Source of the DNA: Acutalibacteraceae bacterium
GTDB lineage: Bacteria; Bacillota; Clostridia; Oscillospirales; Acutalibacteraceae
Reading direction: 5' to 3'
Assembly: GCA_045613085.1 (NCBI GenBank)
Contig: JAZLAG010000003.1
Location: 48,696 to 112,695, forward strand
DNA: 64,000 nt
The position numbers and the translations under genes are program-made. The notes under the pieces are model-generated. The model worked only from the letters and a program-made list of their open reading frames with translations, had not been told where the DNA came from and ran no database searches. Shown piece by piece: positions 1,182 to 54,069 of the stretch. Numbering within the stretch: the stretch's first letter is position 1; the number at the start of each line of letters is the position of its first letter.

Positions 1182-3587
1182 TTAGATTTTTTGTGCATTC
1201 CATATATCTTTTGCATACTCATTTATAGCTCTGTCAGCGGCAAATCGGCCTGAGTTTGCAATATTAGAAAGCATCATCTGGTTCCATTTTTTCTTATCTT
1301 TAAATGTTTCAACCATTTTTTGCTGAGCACGTCTGTAATCTGCAAAATCTGCAAGAACCATAAATGGGTCGTGGTGCATAATAGTACCACTGATATCTGA
1401 GAAGTTCTGACCATTAATTCCGTGAGAAATGAAGTCAAGCACTTTTCTTATATCCTCGTTATTGTTATAGAAGCTCATTGGGTCATAGCCACGACTTCTT
1501 AAAGAGTTAACCTCTTCTGTTCTCATACCGAATAAGAACATATTATCATCGCCAACTGACTCGTGAATTTCTACGTTAGCACCATCAAGTGTACCAATGG
1601 TAATAGCACCATTCATCATAAGCTTCATATTACCAGTACCACTTGCCTCTTTACCCGCAAGAGAAATCTGCTCTGAAACATCTGCCGCCGGCATAAGCTT
1701 TTCAGCATTACTTACATTGTAATCTTCAACATAAAGAACCTTAAGTCTACCTTTAACATCAGGGTCATTATTTATTAAATCAGCAAGTGCTAAAATGAAT
1801 GAAATAATTCTTTGTGCTACGTGGTAACCAGGAGCAGCCTTTGCACCGAAAATATAAGTGTGTGGTGTAAATTCTTTGTCTGGATTTTCTTTGATTGTAA
1901 GATAATCAAGCACAATGTTGAATGCATTGAGGTGTTGACGTTTGTACTCGTGAAGACGTTTAACCTGAACGTCAAAAATAGAGTTAACATCAAGCTCCTG
2001 ACCAGTTGTTTTCTTAATAAAGTCTGCAAAATCTTTTTTGTTTTCCATTTTGATTTCTGCTAACTTATTAAGAACATCTTTATCATTCTTATAATCATTG
2101 AGTTTTGAAAGATTATCTGCATCGTAAACGAATTTATCGTTACCTAAGAGTTCTTTTAAATAAGCAGTAAGTCTTGGGTTTGCCTGACAGAGCCAACGTC
2201 TGTGTGCAATACCATTTGTAACATTTGTAAATTTATCTGGCATTAAGCGGTAGAAATCGTTAAAGAGTGAATCTTTAAGAATCTGACTGTGAAGACCAGA
2301 AACGCCGTTAACACTGTGACAAGTAGCAACACAAAGGTTTGCCATACGAACAACGCCACCAGAAATAATTGCAGTTCTTTCTACATAATCCGCATCGTGT
2401 GTTGATTCCCAAATATAACCTCTGAAACGATTGTCAATCTCTTTAATAATTTCATAAACACGTGGAATAAGTCTTTTAACAAGCTCTTCACTCCAGCATT
2501 CAAGTGCTTCACTCATAACTGTGTGGTTAGTATAAGCCATAGATTTTGTAACAATATTCCATGCATCATCCCAACCATAGCCACATTCGTCGAGGAGAAT
2601 TCTCATAAGCTCAGGAATGGCCATTGTAGGATGGGTATCGTTAATATGAATAGCAACTCTGTCTGAGAAATTGTCGAGTGTGCCGTTTACTCTCAAGTGA
2701 TGGCGGACAATATCCTGAACAGAAGCAGATACTAAGAAATACTGCTGACGAAGTCTTAAAGCCTTGCCTTCTGGATGGTTATCTGATGGATAAAGAACCT
2801 TACTGATAACCTCTGCCATAGCCTGACGTTCCATTGAACGAATATAATCACCTTCGTTAAAGAGTTTCATATCAAACTCAGGTGCTTTTGCAGTCCAAAG
2901 ACGAAGAATACTTACACATTTACCATCCTTACCAGGAACAAACATATCGTAAGGAATAGCTTTAATAACTGTTCCGTTTTCAATTTCTACGTGGTGATAC
3001 TGGTCATCCCATGTATCTTTAACAGTACCTTCAAAAGTAATATCTACTGAGCTACTTTCTCTTGGTACGAGCCATACGTCACCGCCAGGAAGCCAGTTGT
3101 CAGGAAGCTCAGTTTGTTTACCATCAATAAGCTTCTGACGGAAAATACCATATTCATAAAGAATTGAGTAACCACGTGCTGAGTAGCCCTGTGTTGCAAG
3201 ACCATCTAAGTAGCAAGCAGCAAGTCTACCCAGACCACCGTTACCAAGACCAGCATCTGGTTCACATTCATAAAGGTCATCTAATTTAATACCTAAATCT
3301 TTGAGAACACTTTTAAAAGTATCTGTAAGATTAAGGTTATAAAGGTTATTTTTAAGAGAACGACCCATAAGGAATTCCATTGAAAGATAGTAAACGTTCT
3401 TTTTACCGCTTTCGTCAGATTTCTTAACTGTTTCGCCTCTGCCCTCTGTCATCATATCTCTGAGAATCATTGCGATTGCTCTATAATATTGCTCATTTGT
3501 AGCATTATGAGTAGAAACACCAAAGAAATGAAGAAGTCTGTTTTCAAGCATTTCTTTTGCTTGTTTCTTTGTAAGTTTATAATTCAT
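1182..3587 (-). CDS. glgP: Glycogen/maltodextrin phosphorylase
   Basis: 801 aa. It has the hallmark PLP-lysine region EASGTGNMKLMMNGA and the N-terminal LGNGGLGRLAACYLD motif of GT35 phosphorylases. Confidence 0.95.
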   Translation of the reverse strand: MNYKLTKKQAKEMLENRLLHFFGVSTHNATNEQYYRAIAMILRDMMTEGRGETVKKSDESGKKNVYYLSMEFLMGRSLKNNLYNLNLTDTFKSVLKDLGIKLDDLYECEPDAGLGNGGLGRLAACYLDGLATQGYSARGYSILYEYGIFRQKLIDGKQTELPDNWLPGGDVWLVPRESSSVDITFEGTVKDTWDDQYHHVEIENGTVIKAIPYDMFVPGKDGKCVSILRLWTAKAPEFDMKLFNEGDYIRSMERQAMAEVISKVLYPSDNHPEGKALRLRQQYFLVSASVQDIVRHHLRVNGTLDNFSDRVAIHINDTHPTMAIPELMRILLDECGYGWDDAWNIVTKSMAYTNHTVMSEALECWSEELVKRLIPRVYEIIKEIDNRFRGYIWESTHDADYVERTAIISGGVVRMANLCVATCHSVNGVSGLHSQILKDSLFNDFYRLMPDKFTNVTNGIAHRRWLCQANPRLTAYLKELLGNDKFVYDADNLSKLNDYKNDKDVLNKLAEIKMENKKDFADFIKKTTGQELDVNSIFDVQVKRLHEYKRQHLNAFNIVLDYLTIKENPDKEFTPHTYIFGAKAAPGYHVAQRIISFILALADLINNDPDVKGRLKVLYVEDYNVSNAEKLMPAADVSEQISLAGKEASGTGNMKLMMNGAITIGTLDGANVEIHESVGDDNMFLFGMRTEEVNSLRSRGYDPMSFYNNNEDIRKVLDFISHGINGQNFSDISGTIMHHDPFMVLADFADYRRAQQKMVETFKDKKKWNQMMLSNIANSGRFAADRAINEYAKDIWNAQKI

Positions 3588-6471: not shown

Positions 6472-9168
6472 ATGCATCTTAATTTTGGACGGTGCATTAT
6501 GGGTGTTGTAAGAATGATATTAAGTTTAATCCTGACAGTTTTCCAACTTATTGGTTCGTTTATTGTTCCTGGTGACAGTTTCGACTACATAAAAGAATCT
6601 TTCACTACTACAAATAAGGCGTGCTATTCAGAAAGATATTACAAAATCTCAGAAACACGTAAAAATAATACTGACACATGGCGTAATGGTATGGTTTCAG
6701 GGAACGGACTTCAAGGTGTTATTACAAGTGGTGCACCTTACAGTGATTCACTTATTTATCAAAATATACATTTTATTATGCCTAATGAAAAAGTACGTTA
6801 CTGCCCTGACACGTCAGAAGAATTAGAAACCGTAAAACAGAATATTGCTGAAAGTAAAGACATTGTTGACACTGCAAGTTACGATGACGTTTATTCTTTC
6901 CACCCAGGCGGTGCTTTAAGAATCAAACAATCATGGCAACCAACTATAAAATATTACAGATACACAAATTACGAAACTGCTGAAGCAGGTGTTGAATATA
7001 CAAATTTCGGTGGTACGTGGGAAAGATTTTCTTTCACTTCTCAGACAGATAATGCAACCATTACAAAAATCTCTGAGTCTTCAAAAGGTAAAAAAGTTAA
7101 TTTAACACTTTCTTTCGACAACATTTCTACTTTTGCAAACTTTGAGAATGGTTCTGAAGTAGATTTAAAATACAAAAAATTAGTTTCGGAAAATCTTGAC
7201 ACAATCTCTTTTATTGCACACTACCCTGAGTATGAAGAAAGCGAACTAAAAAATGGTGCTTATGCTACTGTTGTTTACGTAATAACAGAAGGTGGCACAA
7301 AAGAAAAAGTTACTTTAAAAGACGTAAAAGATACACAATACTGTGGTGTGGATAACCCAGGCTTAAAAATAACTGATGCCGACAATGTTTATCTTATTGC
7401 GATTTCAGAAAGAAATCATAACGTTGGAACTATAGAAGAATTCACAAAAGCAACTAACTACAAATTAATAAGTGATATTACTACTAAAGCTTCAGAAATT
7501 GAGAAAAAATACACTAAAGATGGAAAATTCAGTTACAATGCTTCAATAAAAGAACACGCAAAAATATTCTCTAACGAATACAATAAAGTCACTTTTAACC
7601 TTGGCGACAGCAACAACACTGTTTCAAACGAAAAACTCATTTTAAAGCAAATTGGCAAAGAAAACATTAATAACGATTTAGCCGAAAGAGCATACTACTC
7701 TGGTAGATATGCTTATCTTTGCTGTGCAGGCTACTCAACGTCTAGACTTGGTGGTATGTGGACTGGTGAATGGGCACCTGGTTGGGGCAGCAAATACACA
7801 ATGGATGCGAATGTAAATTTGCAGACTTCTTCGCTTAACACAAGCAATATGAACTCTACCTACTTAGGCTACGCAACATTCCTTTTAAGACAAATGCCAG
7901 ACTGGGAAGAAAACGCTAAAGCAACCCACGGATTCAGGGATGCAATTCAGGCTCCAGTAAACACAGATGGTGACACGGCGGTTATAACTGAAACCTGTTA
8001 CCCTTACCCTTTCCGTTACTGGAATGCGGGTGCTTCGTGGATGTTAAACCCGCTTTACGAAACGTTACTTTCATACGGTGACGTAAAAATTCCGATTTCA
8101 GAAGATTTCGATTTATACAAATTAAAATCAGTACTTTCGGTAACAGAAGAAGATTTAACCGACGAAGATATAAATGCACTCGAAGAAAAGGGATATTTAG
8201 ATTTAAGAAGTGAAATTCTATTACCTTTACTTATTAAATCTGCAAATTACTGGAACCAAATAATGACCCCTGAATATTACACCGATAAAAATGGTGAAGT
8301 TCAATTTGAAAAAGGCAAAAAAGATTTGCTTGAAAACGAAACTTATGCAATTCTTCCGAGTTATTCACCTGAAAACAATCCAGAAAACTACCCAAGCCCA
8401 TCTGTTGCAAATGCGGCAATAGATATTTCTGCTTGTAAAAGCAACCTTTTAATGCTCATTGAAATTATGAAAAGTGTTGATGAAAACGCTGACACAAGTT
8501 ATTGGGAAAACCTTTTAGAGAAACTTCCGCCATACCTTTACGATGAAACAGGTGCACTCAAAGAATGGGCGGCAAATGAATTCACAGAAAATAATCTTCA
8601 CAGACATTTAAGCCACCTTTACTGTGCTTGGCCAATGTTTGAAACACAAGACGATGACGCACTCAAAAAAGCGTGTGACCAGGCAATTTTAAACAGAGCA
8701 AGTGAAAACCAGGCAAGTCACGCATTAGTACACAGAGCGTTGATTGGTGCAAGGCTCAAAGATTCAGTTGCAGTTGAAGATTCTCTTGTAAATCTTATGA
8801 ATCACGGAATATATTATGATTCTATGATGACAAACCACGACTACGACAGGAACAGTTGTTATTGCACCGACTTTACAATAGGTTATTTAGGAATTATAAA
8901 CGAAAGTCTTGTTTACTCTTATAATGACAAAATAGAACTTTTACCTGCAATTCCTGAAAGTTTTGAAACTGGTGAAATCTGTGGTTTAAGAACAAGAAAC
9001 CGTTGTGTAATAGACTCCTTAAAATGGGATATGAACACATCAACTGTTACTGCTACAATTCATTCTGAAATAGCACAATCGTTAACAGTTTCGTGTGGAC
9101 TTTCAGATGATATAACAGAAATTGAATTCAAAGAAAACGAAGCAAAAACAGTAGAATTCAAATTCTGA
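6472..9168 (+). CDS. Large glycoside hydrolase, GH95-like (putative alpha-L-fucosidase/galactosidase type)
   Basis: 898 aa. N-terminal GMVSGNGLQGVITSG resembles the GH95 PIGNGxLG region, TMDANVNLQTS resembles the NINLQMNYW region, and HRHLSHLYCAWP resembles the GH95 HRHxSHL motif. The start could be an internal ATG. Confidence 0.65.
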   Translation: MHLNFGRCIMGVVRMILSLILTVFQLIGSFIVPGDSFDYIKESFTTTNKACYSERYYKISETRKNNTDTWRNGMVSGNGLQGVITSGAPYSDSLIYQNIHFIMPNEKVRYCPDTSEELETVKQNIAESKDIVDTASYDDVYSFHPGGALRIKQSWQPTIKYYRYTNYETAEAGVEYTNFGGTWERFSFTSQTDNATITKISESSKGKKVNLTLSFDNISTFANFENGSEVDLKYKKLVSENLDTISFIAHYPEYEESELKNGAYATVVYVITEGGTKEKVTLKDVKDTQYCGVDNPGLKITDADNVYLIAISERNHNVGTIEEFTKATNYKLISDITTKASEIEKKYTKDGKFSYNASIKEHAKIFSNEYNKVTFNLGDSNNTVSNEKLILKQIGKENINNDLAERAYYSGRYAYLCCAGYSTSRLGGMWTGEWAPGWGSKYTMDANVNLQTSSLNTSNMNSTYLGYATFLLRQMPDWEENAKATHGFRDAIQAPVNTDGDTAVITETCYPYPFRYWNAGASWMLNPLYETLLSYGDVKIPISEDFDLYKLKSVLSVTEEDLTDEDINALEEKGYLDLRSEILLPLLIKSANYWNQIMTPEYYTDKNGEVQFEKGKKDLLENETYAILPSYSPENNPENYPSPSVANAAIDISACKSNLLMLIEIMKSVDENADTSYWENLLEKLPPYLYDETGALKEWAANEFTENNLHRHLSHLYCAWPMFETQDDDALKKACDQAILNRASENQASHALVHRALIGARLKDSVAVEDSLVNLMNHGIYYDSMMTNHDYDRNSCYCTDFTIGYLGIINESLVYSYNDKIELLPAIPESFETGEICGLRTRNRCVIDSLKWDMNTSTVTATIHSEIAQSLTVSCGLSDDITEIEFKENEAKTVEFKF

Positions 9169-36266: not shown

Positions 36267-36351
36267 GCGGGTATGGTGGAATTGGCAGACACGCAAGATT
36301 TAGGTTCTTGTGCCGAAAGGTGTACAGGTTCGACCCCTGCTACCCGCACCA
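36267..36351 (+). tRNA. tRNA-Leu (anticodon UAG)
   Basis: GCGGGTATGGTGGAATTGGCAGACACGCAAGATTTAGGTTCTTGTGCCGAAAGGTGTACAGGTTCGACCCCTGCTACCCGCACCA. Anticodon stem CAAGA/TCTTG, loop TTTAGGT, long variable arm, encoded CCA. Confidence 0.92.
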
Positions 36352-36390
36352 AACAACCTTGGTAGAATTACCAAGGTTGTTTTTTATTGT
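36352..36390 (+). terminator. Terminator of tRNA-Leu
   Basis: AACAACCTTGGTAgaatTACCAAGGTTGTT followed by ttttatt. Confidence 0.75.
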
Positions 36391-44110: not shown

Positions 44111-44139
44111 TTGACAATTCCGTTTTTATATACTATTAT
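44111..44139 (+). promoter_or_regulatory. Near-consensus sigma-70 promoter reading into structured element A
   Basis: TTGACA (44111-44116), exactly 17 nt, then TATTAT (44134-44139). No ORF follows; the next features are element A, the tRNA-Leu fragment and a terminator. Confidence 0.55.
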
Positions 44140-44189
44140 GCAGATATAGAAAAAGGCAAAACACGAAACCCCTTGATTCTATTGGGATT

Positions 44190-44465
44190 AGAGTGAGTGT
44201 GTTCGAACCAGATATGGTTTAATACAGTCACTTTCCCCTGTAACATCGTTAAAACTCTTGAAATACGGCAGTATTCCTACGAGTTTTGCCTTGTTACAGA
44301 AAAAACTGCCAAGTATTAAACTTCGCAGAACCTTAAATGTTCGAGTTTGCGTGCATTTTGGGTTTTCTTTGGCGTAGTTATACTGGCGTATATCAAGACA
44401 AAAAAACACAAAGGGTGCGTGAAATCGGACATTTAAGGCATATTTGGTTCAAATACACTCACTCT
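44190..44465 (+). ncRNA. Candidate structured RNA element, copy A (276 nt), unclassified
   Basis: AGAGTGAGTGT (44190-44200) pairs perfectly with ACACTCACTCT (44455-44465), extendable to about 20 bp. Two blocks are shared with copy B: 44241-44296 (51/56 identical) and 44364-44405 (40/42), at the same offsets. A promoter lies upstream and a terminator at 44546-44581. Confidence 0.5.
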
Positions 44466-44492
44466 TGAGCTTGTCCCCAAGGTGGCGTGACC

Positions 44493-44545
44493 TTTAGGTT
44501 CTTGTGCCGAAAGGTGTACAGGTTCAAGTCCTGCTACCCGCACCA
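44493..44545 (+). pseudogene. 3' half of tRNA-Leu(UAG), duplicated fragment (att-like scar)
   Basis: tttaggttcttgtgccgaaaggtgtacaggttcaagtcctgctacccgcacca matches 36299-36351 except for 3 T-loop positions. There is no 5' acceptor or D-arm. Confidence 0.85.
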
Positions 44546-44581
44546 AACAACTTTGGTAGAATTACCAAGGTTGTTTTTTTA
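44546..44581 (+). terminator. Duplicate of the tRNA-Leu terminator
   Basis: aaacaactttggtagaattaccaaggttgttttttt; one substitution relative to 36352-36388. Confidence 0.7.
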
Positions 44582-44678
44582 TTATCTTACTTAGAAACAT
44601 ACCCAAGGACTTGAACCTGCTCTCACCGAAGGTGAACAAAATCGTTGCCGTTCTGACGGCAAAGCGTAGCGAGCGCCG

Positions 44679-44700
44679 TCGAGTCCTGTCAGGTGTACCA
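44679..44700 (+). pseudogene. Second, unrelated tRNA-like 3'-end fragment
   Basis: tcgagtcctgtcaggtgtacca resembles T-loop/T-stem/acceptor/ACCA. There is no matching 5' half; an inverted ggacttgaacc T-arm-like piece lies at 44608-44618. Confidence 0.4.
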
Positions 44701-44741
44701 AACCAGGTGTTCATTCAAATACTGAATGAACACCTGGTTTT
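44700..44741. terminator. Strong hairpin/terminator
   Basis: AAACCAGGTGTTCATTCaaatactGAATGAACACCTGGTTT followed by t; a 17-bp stem. Confidence 0.7.
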
Positions 44742-44809
44742 ATTGATACTGTACGAATATTCACGCCTAAAATCTCAAATCGTAATACTTAAGATTTTTG
44801 GGTTTATGT

Positions 44810-46465
44810 TCATTGTTTTTTATTTTTAGCTATACACTTGCTATAATTACAATCTTTACTTTCAATTACTTCAATCGGAAACTCTTTATTAATGCAAAAT
44901 GTAATTTTTTCTAAACTATTTTCGTTTGATTTTTTTAATTTTAACCCTCTGTATAATAAAGTATATATAGCAACGACACGATCAGATAATTCATATTTAT
45001 CAATTGTTGTACTTACTGTATCATATGTACATATCACATCCGTTACAACAATTATGTTTTTATCTTTGGGTAACACTTGCTCTATATCATTCGTAGAATT
45101 TTTATCTTCAGATTTCGCTGGGATAACATATTGAAACGGAAGATTGAGTTTCATAGCCAAAAGAGCTGCTAATATTGAACCTTCTAAATCCAAGCCAATA
45201 ATTATAGCGTTCTCATTAAAGCTTTTTTTTGTGCAATGTTCAGCGAATTTTTCTATACATATATCACAAATTTTTTCAGTTTCAATTATTTCATTTGTGT
45301 CAATCCAATCGCGAGAACAATATTTGCTATTTATTTTATAATGACCACCATCTAACAAATTTTTGTTTTCAATATATTCTTTCAAAATATTACTTGTATG
45401 TTCATGTAAAACATCTGGATACTCATATTCCATAGATTCTATTAATTCTGTTTTAACTATGGCTTTATCTTCAGCATTGATAATTGTGCTTAATTCCTTA
45501 AGATTATTAAAGGAAGATATTGGATCCAACATACTATTTATTTCTCTATTAACAATTTCATTACCAGATACGATTTTAATCTTATCGCTACGAAAACCAA
45601 TTTTTGAATTTTCTGGTTTATTGAAGACAAGATTTAATGCAGTTGTTAACTCTTTTAATATTTTGCTTCGCACTTCCATTATCTCACAAACAATATTTGA
45701 AATATCATCATTATTTAAATTTATATATTCATCATCGCAATATATTTCTATTTGTGATAAATCATTTTCAGTATAATCCATCATACTGAAATAATGTAAT
45801 CGTTTCCAGTGTTTAATCGATATTCGTTCCTTTTCATTTTCTACTGAAAGTTGATCTGCAAATAGTTCAGTTCCTAATCGGTCTGAAGTGATATCAAACT
45901 CATCTGCTAATCTTAAAATTGCAGCAATTGCTTTCCCGTTAATTCCCCCACTCATTCTGAATAATAATTCAGGATTTTTTATTCCGTTTTTTTCGTCTTC
46001 AACAGAACCATCTTTTATATCACTGTGTGCTGTAATAATTTTCCTAATAACACTTATATCGTTATGTGTAATATTATTTCTTTGTTTTTCTTGAGCTAGT
46101 GGCGATGATTGATTATTCTCTTCATCCTTTACATAATCTGCAGACTCTTTAGAATGTGTATTTCTATTCCAATTTTTATTTACTGCCATAGATATATCAT
46201 GAAACAGAACCGATAAATGTAAAACATAGAGTTCTTTAGATGTAAACATATTTGAATCAGCGTGTAACAATATTATTTCACTTATAATTCTGAATATATC
46301 GTTGCAGTGCTTATCGAAATCATGAGCAGTGTACAAAACTTCACCTATAGGGCACCCCCTGTTTAGGAGTTCCCCGTAATGCTCAGCCAATCTATCAAAA
46401 GATTCCTGATGTTCTTTTTCCATCAATATATAACATTGGTATTGTGTATAATCCTTTTTAATCAT
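44810..46465 (-). CDS. HD-domain phosphohydrolase fused to a type I phosphoribosyltransferase (PRTase)-fold domain; gene 3 of the candidate system
   Basis: 551 aa. HD elements: FDKHCNDIF, LFHDIS (46190-46207), TAHSD, RLADEFD. C-terminal PRTase signatures: IIIGLDLEGSILAALLA and PRPP-loop-like NIIVVTDVICTYDTV (45014-45058). GGAGGAG RBS; 8-nt overlap with the upstream gene. Confidence 0.65.
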   Translation of the reverse strand: MIKKDYTQYQCYILMEKEHQESFDRLAEHYGELLNRGCPIGEVLYTAHDFDKHCNDIFRIISEIILLHADSNMFTSKELYVLHLSVLFHDISMAVNKNWNRNTHSKESADYVKDEENNQSSPLAQEKQRNNITHNDISVIRKIITAHSDIKDGSVEDEKNGIKNPELLFRMSGGINGKAIAAILRLADEFDITSDRLGTELFADQLSVENEKERISIKHWKRLHYFSMMDYTENDLSQIEIYCDDEYINLNNDDISNIVCEIMEVRSKILKELTTALNLVFNKPENSKIGFRSDKIKIVSGNEIVNREINSMLDPISSFNNLKELSTIINAEDKAIVKTELIESMEYEYPDVLHEHTSNILKEYIENKNLLDGGHYKINSKYCSRDWIDTNEIIETEKICDICIEKFAEHCTKKSFNENAIIIGLDLEGSILAALLAMKLNLPFQYVIPAKSEDKNSTNDIEQVLPKDKNIIVVTDVICTYDTVSTTIDKYELSDRVVAIYTLLYRGLKLKKSNENSLEKITFCINKEFPIEVIESKDCNYSKCIAKNKKQ

Positions 46466-47459
46466 TTGCTCCTCCTAAATCATCACTAAAGCCAGAAATT
46501 ATGTAATCTATGTTCTGTTCTTTTGTATTAACAAGTGAGATAATTTTATTTAAAATAGATTCAGCGTATTTATCTGAAGTTGTATTTATATACGAAGCTA
46601 CAGAAATACCTCCGATAAGGTTTGCTCCAGCAAGAGTTATAATGGTATTTAAAGTTTTAATTTCGGTACCAAGGCATACAAAATCGCTCACAACATAATA
46701 CGACTTATCTCTTCTAATCTTATTAAATATATTTGATATTGAGGTGTTTTTTGGCCCCAAACCTAGACAATGAACAACTTTTTTGTTTAGTAATTTCCCT
46801 ACTAAAGTTGCGATAATACCACCCGTTTTACTTGTGCTAATAAGAGCATCAATTTTATCAATACCAAAATCATAAATATGTTTAGCAAGTTCATATATTA
46901 TAAACATATAAGAATTAAAACCGTAAAAAATTCTATTGATATGGGTGTATGTTGAACTATATATACCAGATGAATCAAGAAATTTGATACCGCCAGTTTC
47001 TATTACATTATTTAATTGTAATATCTCCATAATATGCATTGAATATATTTTTCTATAGTCCAATTTCTCAACAATCTTCAAATCGTTTATATTTTTACCA
47101 TAAACATCATTTTCATTTTGCAACCCATTAATGCTTTCAATTATTCTTTCTCCTATTAATAAATCATTTCCAACATTAACAAAAAAAAGATTATCTATAA
47201 ACTTACTATTATTATAATTTTCGAAAGCTCTATTACAAAACACTATATTCTTAAAATCTAAGATTATTTTAGAAGTTTTGTTTTTAGAATAAAGTGTTTC
47301 AATATAAATTTTCAGTTCATTGATAAATTGATCTGATAATGCAATATCTCTTTCATATTGTGGCATCTTTGTACTATTCTTAAAAACAAAAATAAAAGTA
47401 TTATATGCAAGAGGAATTAAATACATTTCATCATTCTTTATACAATAAAAATCAAACAT
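46458..47459 (-). CDS. PRTase-fold protein with N-terminal alpha/beta (possibly STAS-like) module; gene 2 of the candidate system
   Basis: 333 aa. ALISTSKTGGIIATLVGKLL and PRPP-loop-like YYVVSDFVCLGTEI (46659-46700); FLDSSGIYS at 46956-46982. GAGGAGG RBS; 8-nt overlaps on both sides. Confidence 0.6.
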   Translation of the reverse strand: MFDFYCIKNDEMYLIPLAYNTFIFVFKNSTKMPQYERDIALSDQFINELKIYIETLYSKNKTSKIILDFKNIVFCNRAFENYNNSKFIDNLFFVNVGNDLLIGERIIESINGLQNENDVYGKNINDLKIVEKLDYRKIYSMHIMEILQLNNVIETGGIKFLDSSGIYSSTYTHINRIFYGFNSYMFIIYELAKHIYDFGIDKIDALISTSKTGGIIATLVGKLLNKKVVHCLGLGPKNTSISNIFNKIRRDKSYYVVSDFVCLGTEIKTLNTIITLAGANLIGGISVASYINTTSDKYAESILNKIISLVNTKEQNIDYIISGFSDDLGGAND

Positions 47460-53662: not shown

Positions 53663-53686
53663 CCTGTATTTTTAATACGAAGGTTT

Positions 53687-53963
53687 AAGGTGACGGGAGT
53701 CGAACCCCGTACGCCTAAAATTTAAATCTTTCGGCACATTAAGCCGTTTTTTGTCTTGTTATACGCCAGTATGACTACGCCAAAGAAACACCTTACTGCA
53801 CCAAAATCTTTACAATTTTAGATGCAAGCAGTTTTGTAAGACGAAAAAATTTCCAATAACAAGGAAGAACTCGCAGGAATACTGTCGTATTTCAAGAGTT
53901 TTGACGATGTTAGTGGAAATTTTTGTCTTCCAAAACCGTGCGGTGTTTGGCTCCCGTCACCTT
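53687..53963 (-). ncRNA. Candidate structured RNA element, copy B (277 nt), directly upstream of the LytTR gene
   Basis: In the minus sense, AAGGTGACGGGAG (53951-53963) pairs perfectly with CTCCCGTCACCTT (53687-53699). Conserved blocks lie at 53857-53912 and 53747-53788, matching copy A at the same offsets (52 and 176). The element ends 25-34 nt before the LytTR start. Confidence 0.5.
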
Positions 53964-54069
53964 ACCCTCATTTATATATGACGAAAATCGACAAAAGCTA
54001 CATAAAAATTTTGGAATTTTATGAAAATCAGCGTTTTGTATATAGTAAAACAATTGAAATTAGTAAAAA

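Follow-up and report, generated by a model that had tools for sequence, protein, structure and literature searches.

Two structured non-coding elements of an Acutalibacteraceae contig are very probably insertions of a MITE-like repeat widespread in Oscillospirales

Are two related and strongly folded non-coding elements in an Acutalibacteraceae genome genes for an RNA, or are they something else? The elements, A (276 bp) and B (277 nt), lie in a 64,000-nucleotide stretch of contig JAZLAG010000003.1 (assembly GCA_045613085.1, positions 48,696 to 112,695 of the forward strand), the whole of which is here called the window. A first-pass annotation had proposed that they are paralogous genes for a structured RNA and that A has its own promoter. 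The comparison with relatives does not support this, and both are in all likelihood insertions of a non-autonomous, non-coding mobile DNA repeat that resembles a MITE (miniature inverted-repeat transposable element) and is multi-copy and widespread in Oscillospirales. MITEs are short elements, under about 800 bp, and non-coding. The reading is preferred because both elements are absent at orthologous loci, their junctions are centred on TA, they end in inverted repeats, many dispersed copies exist, and some derivatives have kept nothing except the ends. The family is not in Rfam, and no paper describing the motif or the family was found in the literature.

Every statement that the annotation made about the sequence itself proved correct on re-checking. 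A and B are homologous, with an overall identity of about 71%, and they share two internal blocks in which 51 of 56 and 40 of 42 positions are identical, at re-measured offsets of 52 and 175/176 from the 5′ end. The ends of A, AGAGTGAGTGT and ACACTCACTCT, pair as described, in a helix that reaches 27 bp, and in both elements a terminal helix of about 25–27 bp encloses two long arms. Two points had gone unremarked: B is on the minus strand, and the second conserved block is the first one inverted, with 3 mismatches in 21 (CTTGATATACGCCAGTATAAC compared with CTTGAAATACGGCAGTATTCC). The minimum free energies are −107.2 kcal/mol for A and −102.1 kcal/mol for B, and dinucleotide shuffles give about −60 (z = −10.1 and −8.6); the opposite strands of the two elements fold about equally stably. 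The only open reading frame of at least 60 codons in A, which starts with GTG on the minus strand (44188–44409), lacks an equivalent in B. A and B are the only copies of the repeat in the window, where the chance expectation of the core motif is 0.00.

Orthologous loci in relatives lack the insertions. Orthologues of the LytTR gene downstream of B, at 85–89% identity, were recovered with their flanks, and the window flanks align contiguously with them on both sides while the 277 nt of B are skipped. Such empty sites were seen in loci L126 to L136, where the sequence runs ...AAATGAGGGGTAAACCTTCGTATTAAAAATACAGG... and the core of the site, GAGGGGTAAACCTTCG, contains a single TA. In the window the occupied site reads ...AAATGAGGG-TA-(AGGTGACGGGAG...CTCCCGTCACCT)-TA-AACCTTCG..., with the element in parentheses; the same junctions can also be read as GAGGG-TA-(AGGTGAC...GTCACCT)-TA-AACCTTCG.

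For A, the empty site was found in two metagenome contigs, L144 and L145, by a second pattern scan of metagenomes after a first, stricter pattern had given no match. In both the leader is unbroken (...cacgaaaccccttgattctattgggtttgtRgcttgtcacc...), and in the window the element is placed between ...ctattgggat and tgagcttgtcccc.... An A-type copy elsewhere, L083, has TA at both junctions. The promoter that had been assigned to A is present and matches the consensus at 11 of 12 positions. It occurs in L145 too, and in L143 the promoter and leader are conserved as far as the insertion point. Since promoter and leader run uninterrupted at the empty sites, the promoter belongs to the host (or island) locus and not to A. 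A third insertion polymorphism is provided by a B-type copy that breaks the 3′ end of the SDR gene orthologue in L141. The presence and absence of A and B among relatives contradicts fixation of these copies at orthologous sites. No exact-sequence match is on record for the LytTR protein of the window (taken with two start codons) or for its SDR protein. In L141 the copy (TAAGGCGACGAGAGCCAAACACCGCACGG..., 3276–3348) alters the C-terminus of the SDR protein, giving 276 aa compared with 265 aa, and the contig ends within the repeat.

The distribution of the repeat was followed by scanning one genome per GTDB species with a 21-nt core motif, CTTGAWATACGNCAGTATWMC, as query. The motif occurs at at least 120 loci in the scanned genomes, and all family counts and analyses of copy sets given here are drawn from those at least 120 matches listed, whose carriers are almost all Oscillospiraceae, Ruminococcus, Acutalibacteraceae or unclassified Clostridia from gut and rumen. 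Cultured carriers also occur, among them Clostridiales bacterium NK3B98, Ruminococcaceae bacterium P7 and Oscillospiraceae POC01. Single metagenome-assembled genomes (MAGs) hold several loci (at least 9 in CAJTTE01 and at least 7 in CANRNI01), and many of the matches listed are situated at contig ends, as would be expected if the repeat disrupts assembly. A is 91% identical to the copy at L083, an unrelated locus, and B is 95% identical to those at L023 and L092, again at other loci, so that A- and B-type copies are both found in other species. The genes 3′ of long copies are mutually unrelated (lipoproteins, RadC-like, ABC ATPase, FlgB, LysR, LytTR and others), and among co-directional gene pairs there is no preferred orientation (16 vs 9 for short copies, 6 vs 5 for long ones). 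Five viral contigs carry the motif, without a phage association. BLASTN of A and B against plasmids and phages gave no match, and with a short copy the same search gave one partial match, to an unannotated Subdoligranulum replicon.

Copies in the same genome give sharp boundaries, formed by terminal inverted repeats and TA-rich flanks, and they define two classes that together span 160–283 bp and share no coding capacity. In the long class (about 275–283 bp), to which A and B belong, a terminal inverted repeat of about 25 bp encloses a head-to-head pair of rod-like hairpin modules, each about 105 nt long; in the short class (about 160–190 bp) there is one rod only, tipped by the motif. One strand of the apical hairpin reads CTTGAAATAC-GNCA-GTATTCCTGCG and the opposite strand, which is the favoured one in folding, GCA-GGAAUAC-UGNC-GUAUUUC-AA, and around this invariant motif the flanks vary by family yet stay complementary. 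Among 75 well-defined copies the terminal inverted repeats measure 11–44 bp, and their first bases are T(T)A(A)G, TAG or the like. Boundaries such as TTAA/GGCAAYACCGCACAA...TTGTGCGGTRTTGCC/TTAA and CTA/GGGTGTATCTGAAAACTC...GAGTTTTCAGATACACCC/TAG are typical examples, and the GGAACTG family, TAA/GGAACTGT...ACAGTTCC/TAA (or TTA...TTA), has direct 3-bp TAA or TTA flanks in 7 of 8 copies. Ends found in the family include TAAGGTGACGGGAG..., TTAGAGTGAGTGTG..., TTAAGGCAAYACCGC... and TAGGGTGTATCTGAAAAC....

Deletion derivatives of 41 bp retain the ends only. In L070 two copies of such a derivative, at 587–627 and 3207–3247, consist of nothing more than both inverted-repeat ends of the GGCAAYACCGC family. 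Another small palindromic repeat (…GGTCAGCC…CTGTCAGCTTCGCTGACA…) is nested in short elements, in the apex or an arm, at L074 (4710–4790) and L118 (about 7500–7560).

The terminal helices of A and B had been described as fully compensatory and as a signature of selection on structure. They do differ in sequence and are nevertheless paired in both elements, but an RNA function is not needed to explain them: the differing helices are the terminal inverted repeats of different mobile-element subfamilies, and co-variation of the two ends is expected without such a function. The covariation itself extends well beyond the two copies of the window. An RNAalifold consensus of 20 aligned long copies contains 52 pairs, 45 of them with double compensatory changes, and the 25 terminal pairs are conserved.

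These features bear on the proposal with which the analysis began, namely that a new structured non-coding RNA of about 276 nt is encoded by A and by its paralogue B, A having a promoter of its own. Very stable folding, extensive covariation, the lack of a shared open reading frame and the near-consensus promoter 5′ of A would all suit such genes, as would the lack of a known family. On the last point the annotation was borne out: covariance models of Rfam 15, among them those for transfer-messenger RNA (tmRNA), 6S RNA, RNase P, riboswitches, OLE, GOLLD, ROOL, raiA and HEARO, run over the whole window at gathering score, returned three tRNAs only, all outside A and B, and at E values up to 10 the regions of A and B gave sub-threshold matches only, all far under the family gathering scores. 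A match to the tmRNA model in B covers 13 nt at E = 0.043, and ARAGORN, run on the window, called no tRNA or tmRNA at A or B; on the A-excised sequence it made low-threshold “mitochondrial” calls only, which were disregarded. The empty sites largely refute the proposal, since both elements are missing at orthologous loci and promoter and leader persist without A. Moreover, many copies occur per genome at unrelated sites with unrelated neighbour genes, there is no orientation bias, no conserved promoter of the sigma-70 type was found within the elements, both strands fold equally well overall, and the two arms favour opposite strands. We therefore rejected stand-alone RNA genes and consider the proposal barely credible.

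Other known classes of structured element were also considered and set aside. The non-coding msr–msd RNA of a retron is rejected, as no reverse-transcriptase gene appears in the Pfam annotation of the 19 neighbouring genes and the multi-copy, dispersed distribution is unlike that of retrons. attC sites of integrons are arrayed between cassettes by an IntI gene and carry R′/R″ boxes (GTTRRRY); copies of the repeat are solitary and dispersed, and none lies between the small genes of the LytTR operon. Considered from its sequence, the core motif gave no support for a retron, attC, K-turn or promoter assignment.

Several observations weigh against the reading of A and B as MITE-like insertions. 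The 25-nt apex is identical or nearly so across families with unrelated ends and stems, which is unusual for MITEs, and this centre is better conserved than the ends. In all 51 short copies the strand antisense to CTTGAAATACG... folds better, by 21 kcal/mol on average and with 6.8 G-U pairs compared with 2.1; the bias remains after removal of the apex and is seen in 8 of 8 representatives of families with distinct ends. Such strand-biased wobble pairing is not predicted by a purely double-stranded DNA life cycle. At the junctions, the right side of A reads TT and not TA, and because TA is palindromic a TA duplication is indistinguishable from a T^A insertion of an element whose ends are one base longer. 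Finally, about 0.9 Mb of fetched flanks (8-kb loci) contained no transposase with matching ends.

The wobble bias and the conserved apex suggest selection on a single-stranded form, RNA or ssDNA (single-stranded DNA), of the module of about 105 nt; this selection probably acts on propagating copies rather than on every insertion. The G-U pairs are present on both halves of the rod, and the strand bias follows neither gene direction nor GC skew. Arm 1 and arm 2 of long copies favour opposite strands, making the element a pseudo-dyad, so that no single transcript has both optimal arms; the apical stem of arm 2 covaries among these copies (ATAC/GTAT, AAGGC/GCCTT, AATGC/GCATT) around a conserved CUGNCG loop. 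A tentative explanation, which we think rather unlikely, is that the rod module is a functional single-stranded element, RNA or ssDNA, needed for the propagation of the repeat itself, for example as a cofactor or recognition hairpin for the mobilising enzyme. If true, this would explain why families whose ends are unrelated have all kept the module, and why only one strand tolerates wobble pairs, irrespective of the direction of host genes or of replication; small mobile elements of this hairpin-dependent class would then differ from ordinary DDE MITEs.

A more radical alternative takes the whole family to be hairpin-dependent single-strand mobile elements, similar to REPIN/RAYT systems or to the PATEs derived from IS200/IS605; one strand would fold into the rod, with an HUH/Y1-type or other structure-reading enzyme recognising the imperfect apical hairpin and its conserved G-T mismatch. 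It would account for the strand-specific pairing in all short copies and all distinct-end representatives, for the opposite preferences of the two arms in long copies and for an apical hairpin that is better conserved than the ends, and the occurrence of G-U pairs on both halves of the rod means that the strand bias is not a half-specific mutation bias. The sense-strand motif begins CTTGA(A/T)A, which we take to be similar to the CTTG^ATA sequence nicked by Rep proteins of the pC194/phiX174 type and to the CTTG target of IS91. However, the clear terminal inverted repeats, the TA/TWA flanks and the direct 3-bp repeats fit a DDE transposase and not IS200/IS605 or REPINs, and derivatives of 41 bp with terminal repeats only occur at two sites. 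When GC skew is taken to indicate which way replication runs, orientation shows no correlation with it (26 vs 21 copies), and the short class has one central apical hairpin in place of subterminal hairpins at both ends. We regard this alternative as improbable.

It is also conceivable that particular copies have been co-opted as cis-acting RNA, with B serving as a regulatory or processing element in the 5′ untranslated region of the LytTR operon and A in a similar role in the short transcript made from the promoter, the conserved apex binding a host RNA-binding protein or marking an RNase site. Transcription is expected across both elements, which face the same way relative to it, and many copies elsewhere end 10–40 nt 5′ of a ribosome-binding site and start codon; the strand-biased wobble, the conserved apical loop (UGNC) and the covarying arm-2 stems could be read in the same way. 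Relatives manage without the insertion, neighbour genes are unrelated, and the better-folding strand is, if anything, the less often transcribed one in co-directional pairs (9 vs 16, not significant), and we consider co-option a minority possibility.

Insertion of a MITE-like repeat is thus retained as the preferred account of A and B. Movement would be of the cut-and-paste type, driven in trans by a TA-targeting DDE transposase, perhaps of the IS630/Tc1-mariner type or an IS5 subgroup, and subfamilies with different ends could be served by different transposases. We infer this enzyme rather than observe it, since the fetched flanks yielded no transposase gene bounded by matching ends. Candidates for an autonomous partner, sought across all loci as TA-flanked inverted repeats 0.7–2.6 kb apart, were rejected; each was a MITE pair, two MITEs with a host gene lying between them, or a tyrosine-recombinase unit that is unrelated. 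That unit (L071, 1119–2570) has a gene for a 382-aa tyrosine recombinase, perfect 20-bp inverted repeats and TA flanks, and is apparently unrelated to the repeat family. In the host, A lies within a short promoter-driven transcript, and B separates the LytTR promoter region from the ribosome-binding site. Both should be transcribed as very stable structures, which may change the processing or translation of the host transcripts.

The closest systems are the TA-flanked structured MITEs RUP, Correia and ERIC, while BOX is closest in modular build. RUP of pneumococcus and MITEs mobilised by IS630, such as Nezha of cyanobacteria, are likewise small, non-coding, multi-copy and intergenic, with paired terminal inverted repeats and TA insertion with an apparent TA duplication. 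RUP differs in length (107 bp, compared with 160–283 bp here) and in that no matching IS630-type element was found here; in addition, the present family has a central hairpin common to unrelated ends and strand-biased wobble pairs. Background on RUP, BOX and SPRITE repeats is taken from PMC3049150. In Neisseria the Correia elements (CREE/NEMIS), and in enterobacteria ERIC/IRU, are also TA-flanked inverted repeats that are co-transcribed with neighbouring genes and form long RNA hairpins, and these hairpins can be cleaved by RNase III or RNase E or otherwise alter expression (PMC3049150). They belong to another phylum and have other sequences, and the ends of Correia elements are conserved whereas here it is the centre that is conserved, and the ends vary between subfamilies; neither a promoter nor an IHF-type box was recognised in the elements. 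BOX of S. pneumoniae (boxA-boxB-boxC) shares a modular construction, with the module of about 100 nt used here once in the short class or twice head to head in the long class. In contrast, BOX modules are tandem and direct and are not inverted rods, and the sequences are not similar.

REPINs with RAYT and the PATEs derived from IS200/IS605 resemble the family in their strand-specific imperfect hairpins, conserved G-T mismatch and high copy number. They lack terminal inverted repeats and target duplications and show a replication-strand bias, whereas the present elements have terminal inverted repeats and TA/TWA flanks and no GC-skew bias. A different resemblance is to the 3′ ends of tRNA and tmRNA, since many long-class 3′ repeats have the look of a T arm followed by an acceptor strand (GGTTCGAnTCC...), one case being L109 with CAGGTTCGAGTCCTGTCACACTA. 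The elements are without CCA, D arm or anticodon arm, and T-stem pairing is not kept across copies, being missing in A and L015; the box pairs with the 5′ repeat instead.

Because these repeats fold like real structured RNAs and covary abundantly, they can be expected to recur as false non-coding RNA candidates in Oscillospirales, as well as to break MAG assemblies. Their insertion polymorphism between close relatives, in promoters, leaders and the 3′ ends of genes, makes them a source of regulatory variation in gut and rumen anaerobes. With a centre conserved over the ends, wobble tolerated on one strand and a head-to-head dimer with tRNA-like ends, the family also offers a test case for single-stranded action of a MITE hairpin. 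The features of both copies are collected in Table 1.

Table 1. Positions in the window of elements A and B, their parts and junctions, and the promoter 5′ of A
Feature	Position	Strand	Description
Element A	44190..44465	+	276 bp; long class (about 275–283 bp) of the repeat family; fold z = −10.1
Element B	53687..53963	-	Long class, second copy; in the LytTR leader, 23 nt 5′ of the start codon; fold z = −8.6
A, 5′ terminal inverted repeat	44190..44216	+	One arm of the terminal helix; includes GTTCGAACC
A, 3′ terminal inverted repeat	44439..44465	+	Other arm of the terminal helix; includes T-loop-like GGTTCAAAT
A, arm 1	44238..44299	+	Hairpin module with the core motif at its apex; minus strand favoured (−19.6 vs −22.9 kcal/mol)
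A, arm-1 apex, core motif CTTGAAATACGGCAGTATTCCTACG	44257..44281	+	
A, arm 2	44331..44438	+	Second hairpin module, inverted; plus strand favoured (−39.9 vs −25.4 kcal/mol)
A, arm-2 apex, inverted copy of the core motif (CTTGATATACGCCAGTATAACTACG read on the minus strand)	44373..44397	-	
B, 5′ terminal inverted repeat TAAGGTGACGGGAGCCAAACACCG	53941..53964	-	
B, 3′ terminal inverted repeat GGGGTTCGACTCCCGTCACCTTA, T-loop-like box inside	53686..53709	-	
B, arm-1 apex, core motif CTTGAAATACGACAGTATTCCTGCG	53872..53896	-	Arm 1 is 53829–53938
B, arm-2 apex, inverted copy of the core motif (CTTGTTATACGCCAGTATGACTACG read on the plus strand)	53755..53779	+	Arm 2 is 53710–53826
B, upstream junction TA	53963..53964	.	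From comparison of empty and occupied sites
B, downstream junction TA	53686..53687	.	From comparison of empty and occupied sites
A, left junction TA	44189..44190	.	Depending on the parsing, a copy of a target-site duplication, or T^A followed by the repeat's first base
A, right junction TT	44465..44466	.	Imperfect counterpart of the left TA
Promoter TTGACA-17-TATTAT	44111..44139	+	Host or island sequence outside A; A is inserted about 45 nt into the transcript

The surroundings of the two copies show rearrangements of their own. The tRNA-like piece with terminator that follows A (44493–44576) is a direct repeat of the 3′ half and terminator of tRNA-Leu(TAG) at 36267–36351, 86 of 92 positions being identical to 36299–36390; tmRNA, a complete tRNA and a group I intron in a tRNA were considered for this piece and rejected. 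The direct repeats bound about 8.1 kb with genes for a c-di-GMP phosphodiesterase, AhpF, AhpC, an MFS protein and an SDR protein, with no integrase inside, and the arrangement resembles an att-type duplication of the sort that an integrative element leaves behind. In L145 (RHMF01006021, 1140–1420) the promoter, leader, a pseudo-5′-half, the tRNA-Leu 3′ half and the terminator are joined directly to the counterpart of window position 36389 onward. As this is the sequence that follows the true tRNA-Leu, the repeat copies are arranged or have recombined differently in the relative. A second T-arm-like fragment (GCAGGTTCAAGTCCTTGGG) is found inverted on the minus strand at 44600–44640, beside a bidirectional terminator region at 44645–44750. 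In L137 (920–1010), 3′ of a more distant SDR orthologue, there is another mini tRNA-like piece, GGAGGCG...hairpin...AAGAGTTCGATCCTCTCCGTCTCCACCA, with a terminator, which was recognised neither by ARAGORN in bacterial mode nor by Rfam.

Between the two copies, on the minus strand from 53662 to 44810, the LytTR gene heads a series encoding GNAT, NUDIX, APH, DinB-like and FMN reductase proteins, two unknowns, and a protein with HD-CE and phosphoribosyltransferase regions. Weak phosphoribosyltransferase-like regions are present in two adjacent proteins (46458–47459 and 44810–46465, minus strand), in one of them fused to the HD-CE domain. PADLOC gave no match and NCBIfam no specific name for the unknown neighbouring proteins, including both phosphoribosyltransferase-like ones. 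In the relatives L126 to L134 a XerC/D-like integrase is found about 1.1 kb away from the same LytTR gene, and the cargo that follows this gene is entirely different, either methyltransferase/HAD/GmrSD or HNH/Mrr genes; the region is a hypervariable island with a conserved LytTR “head”.

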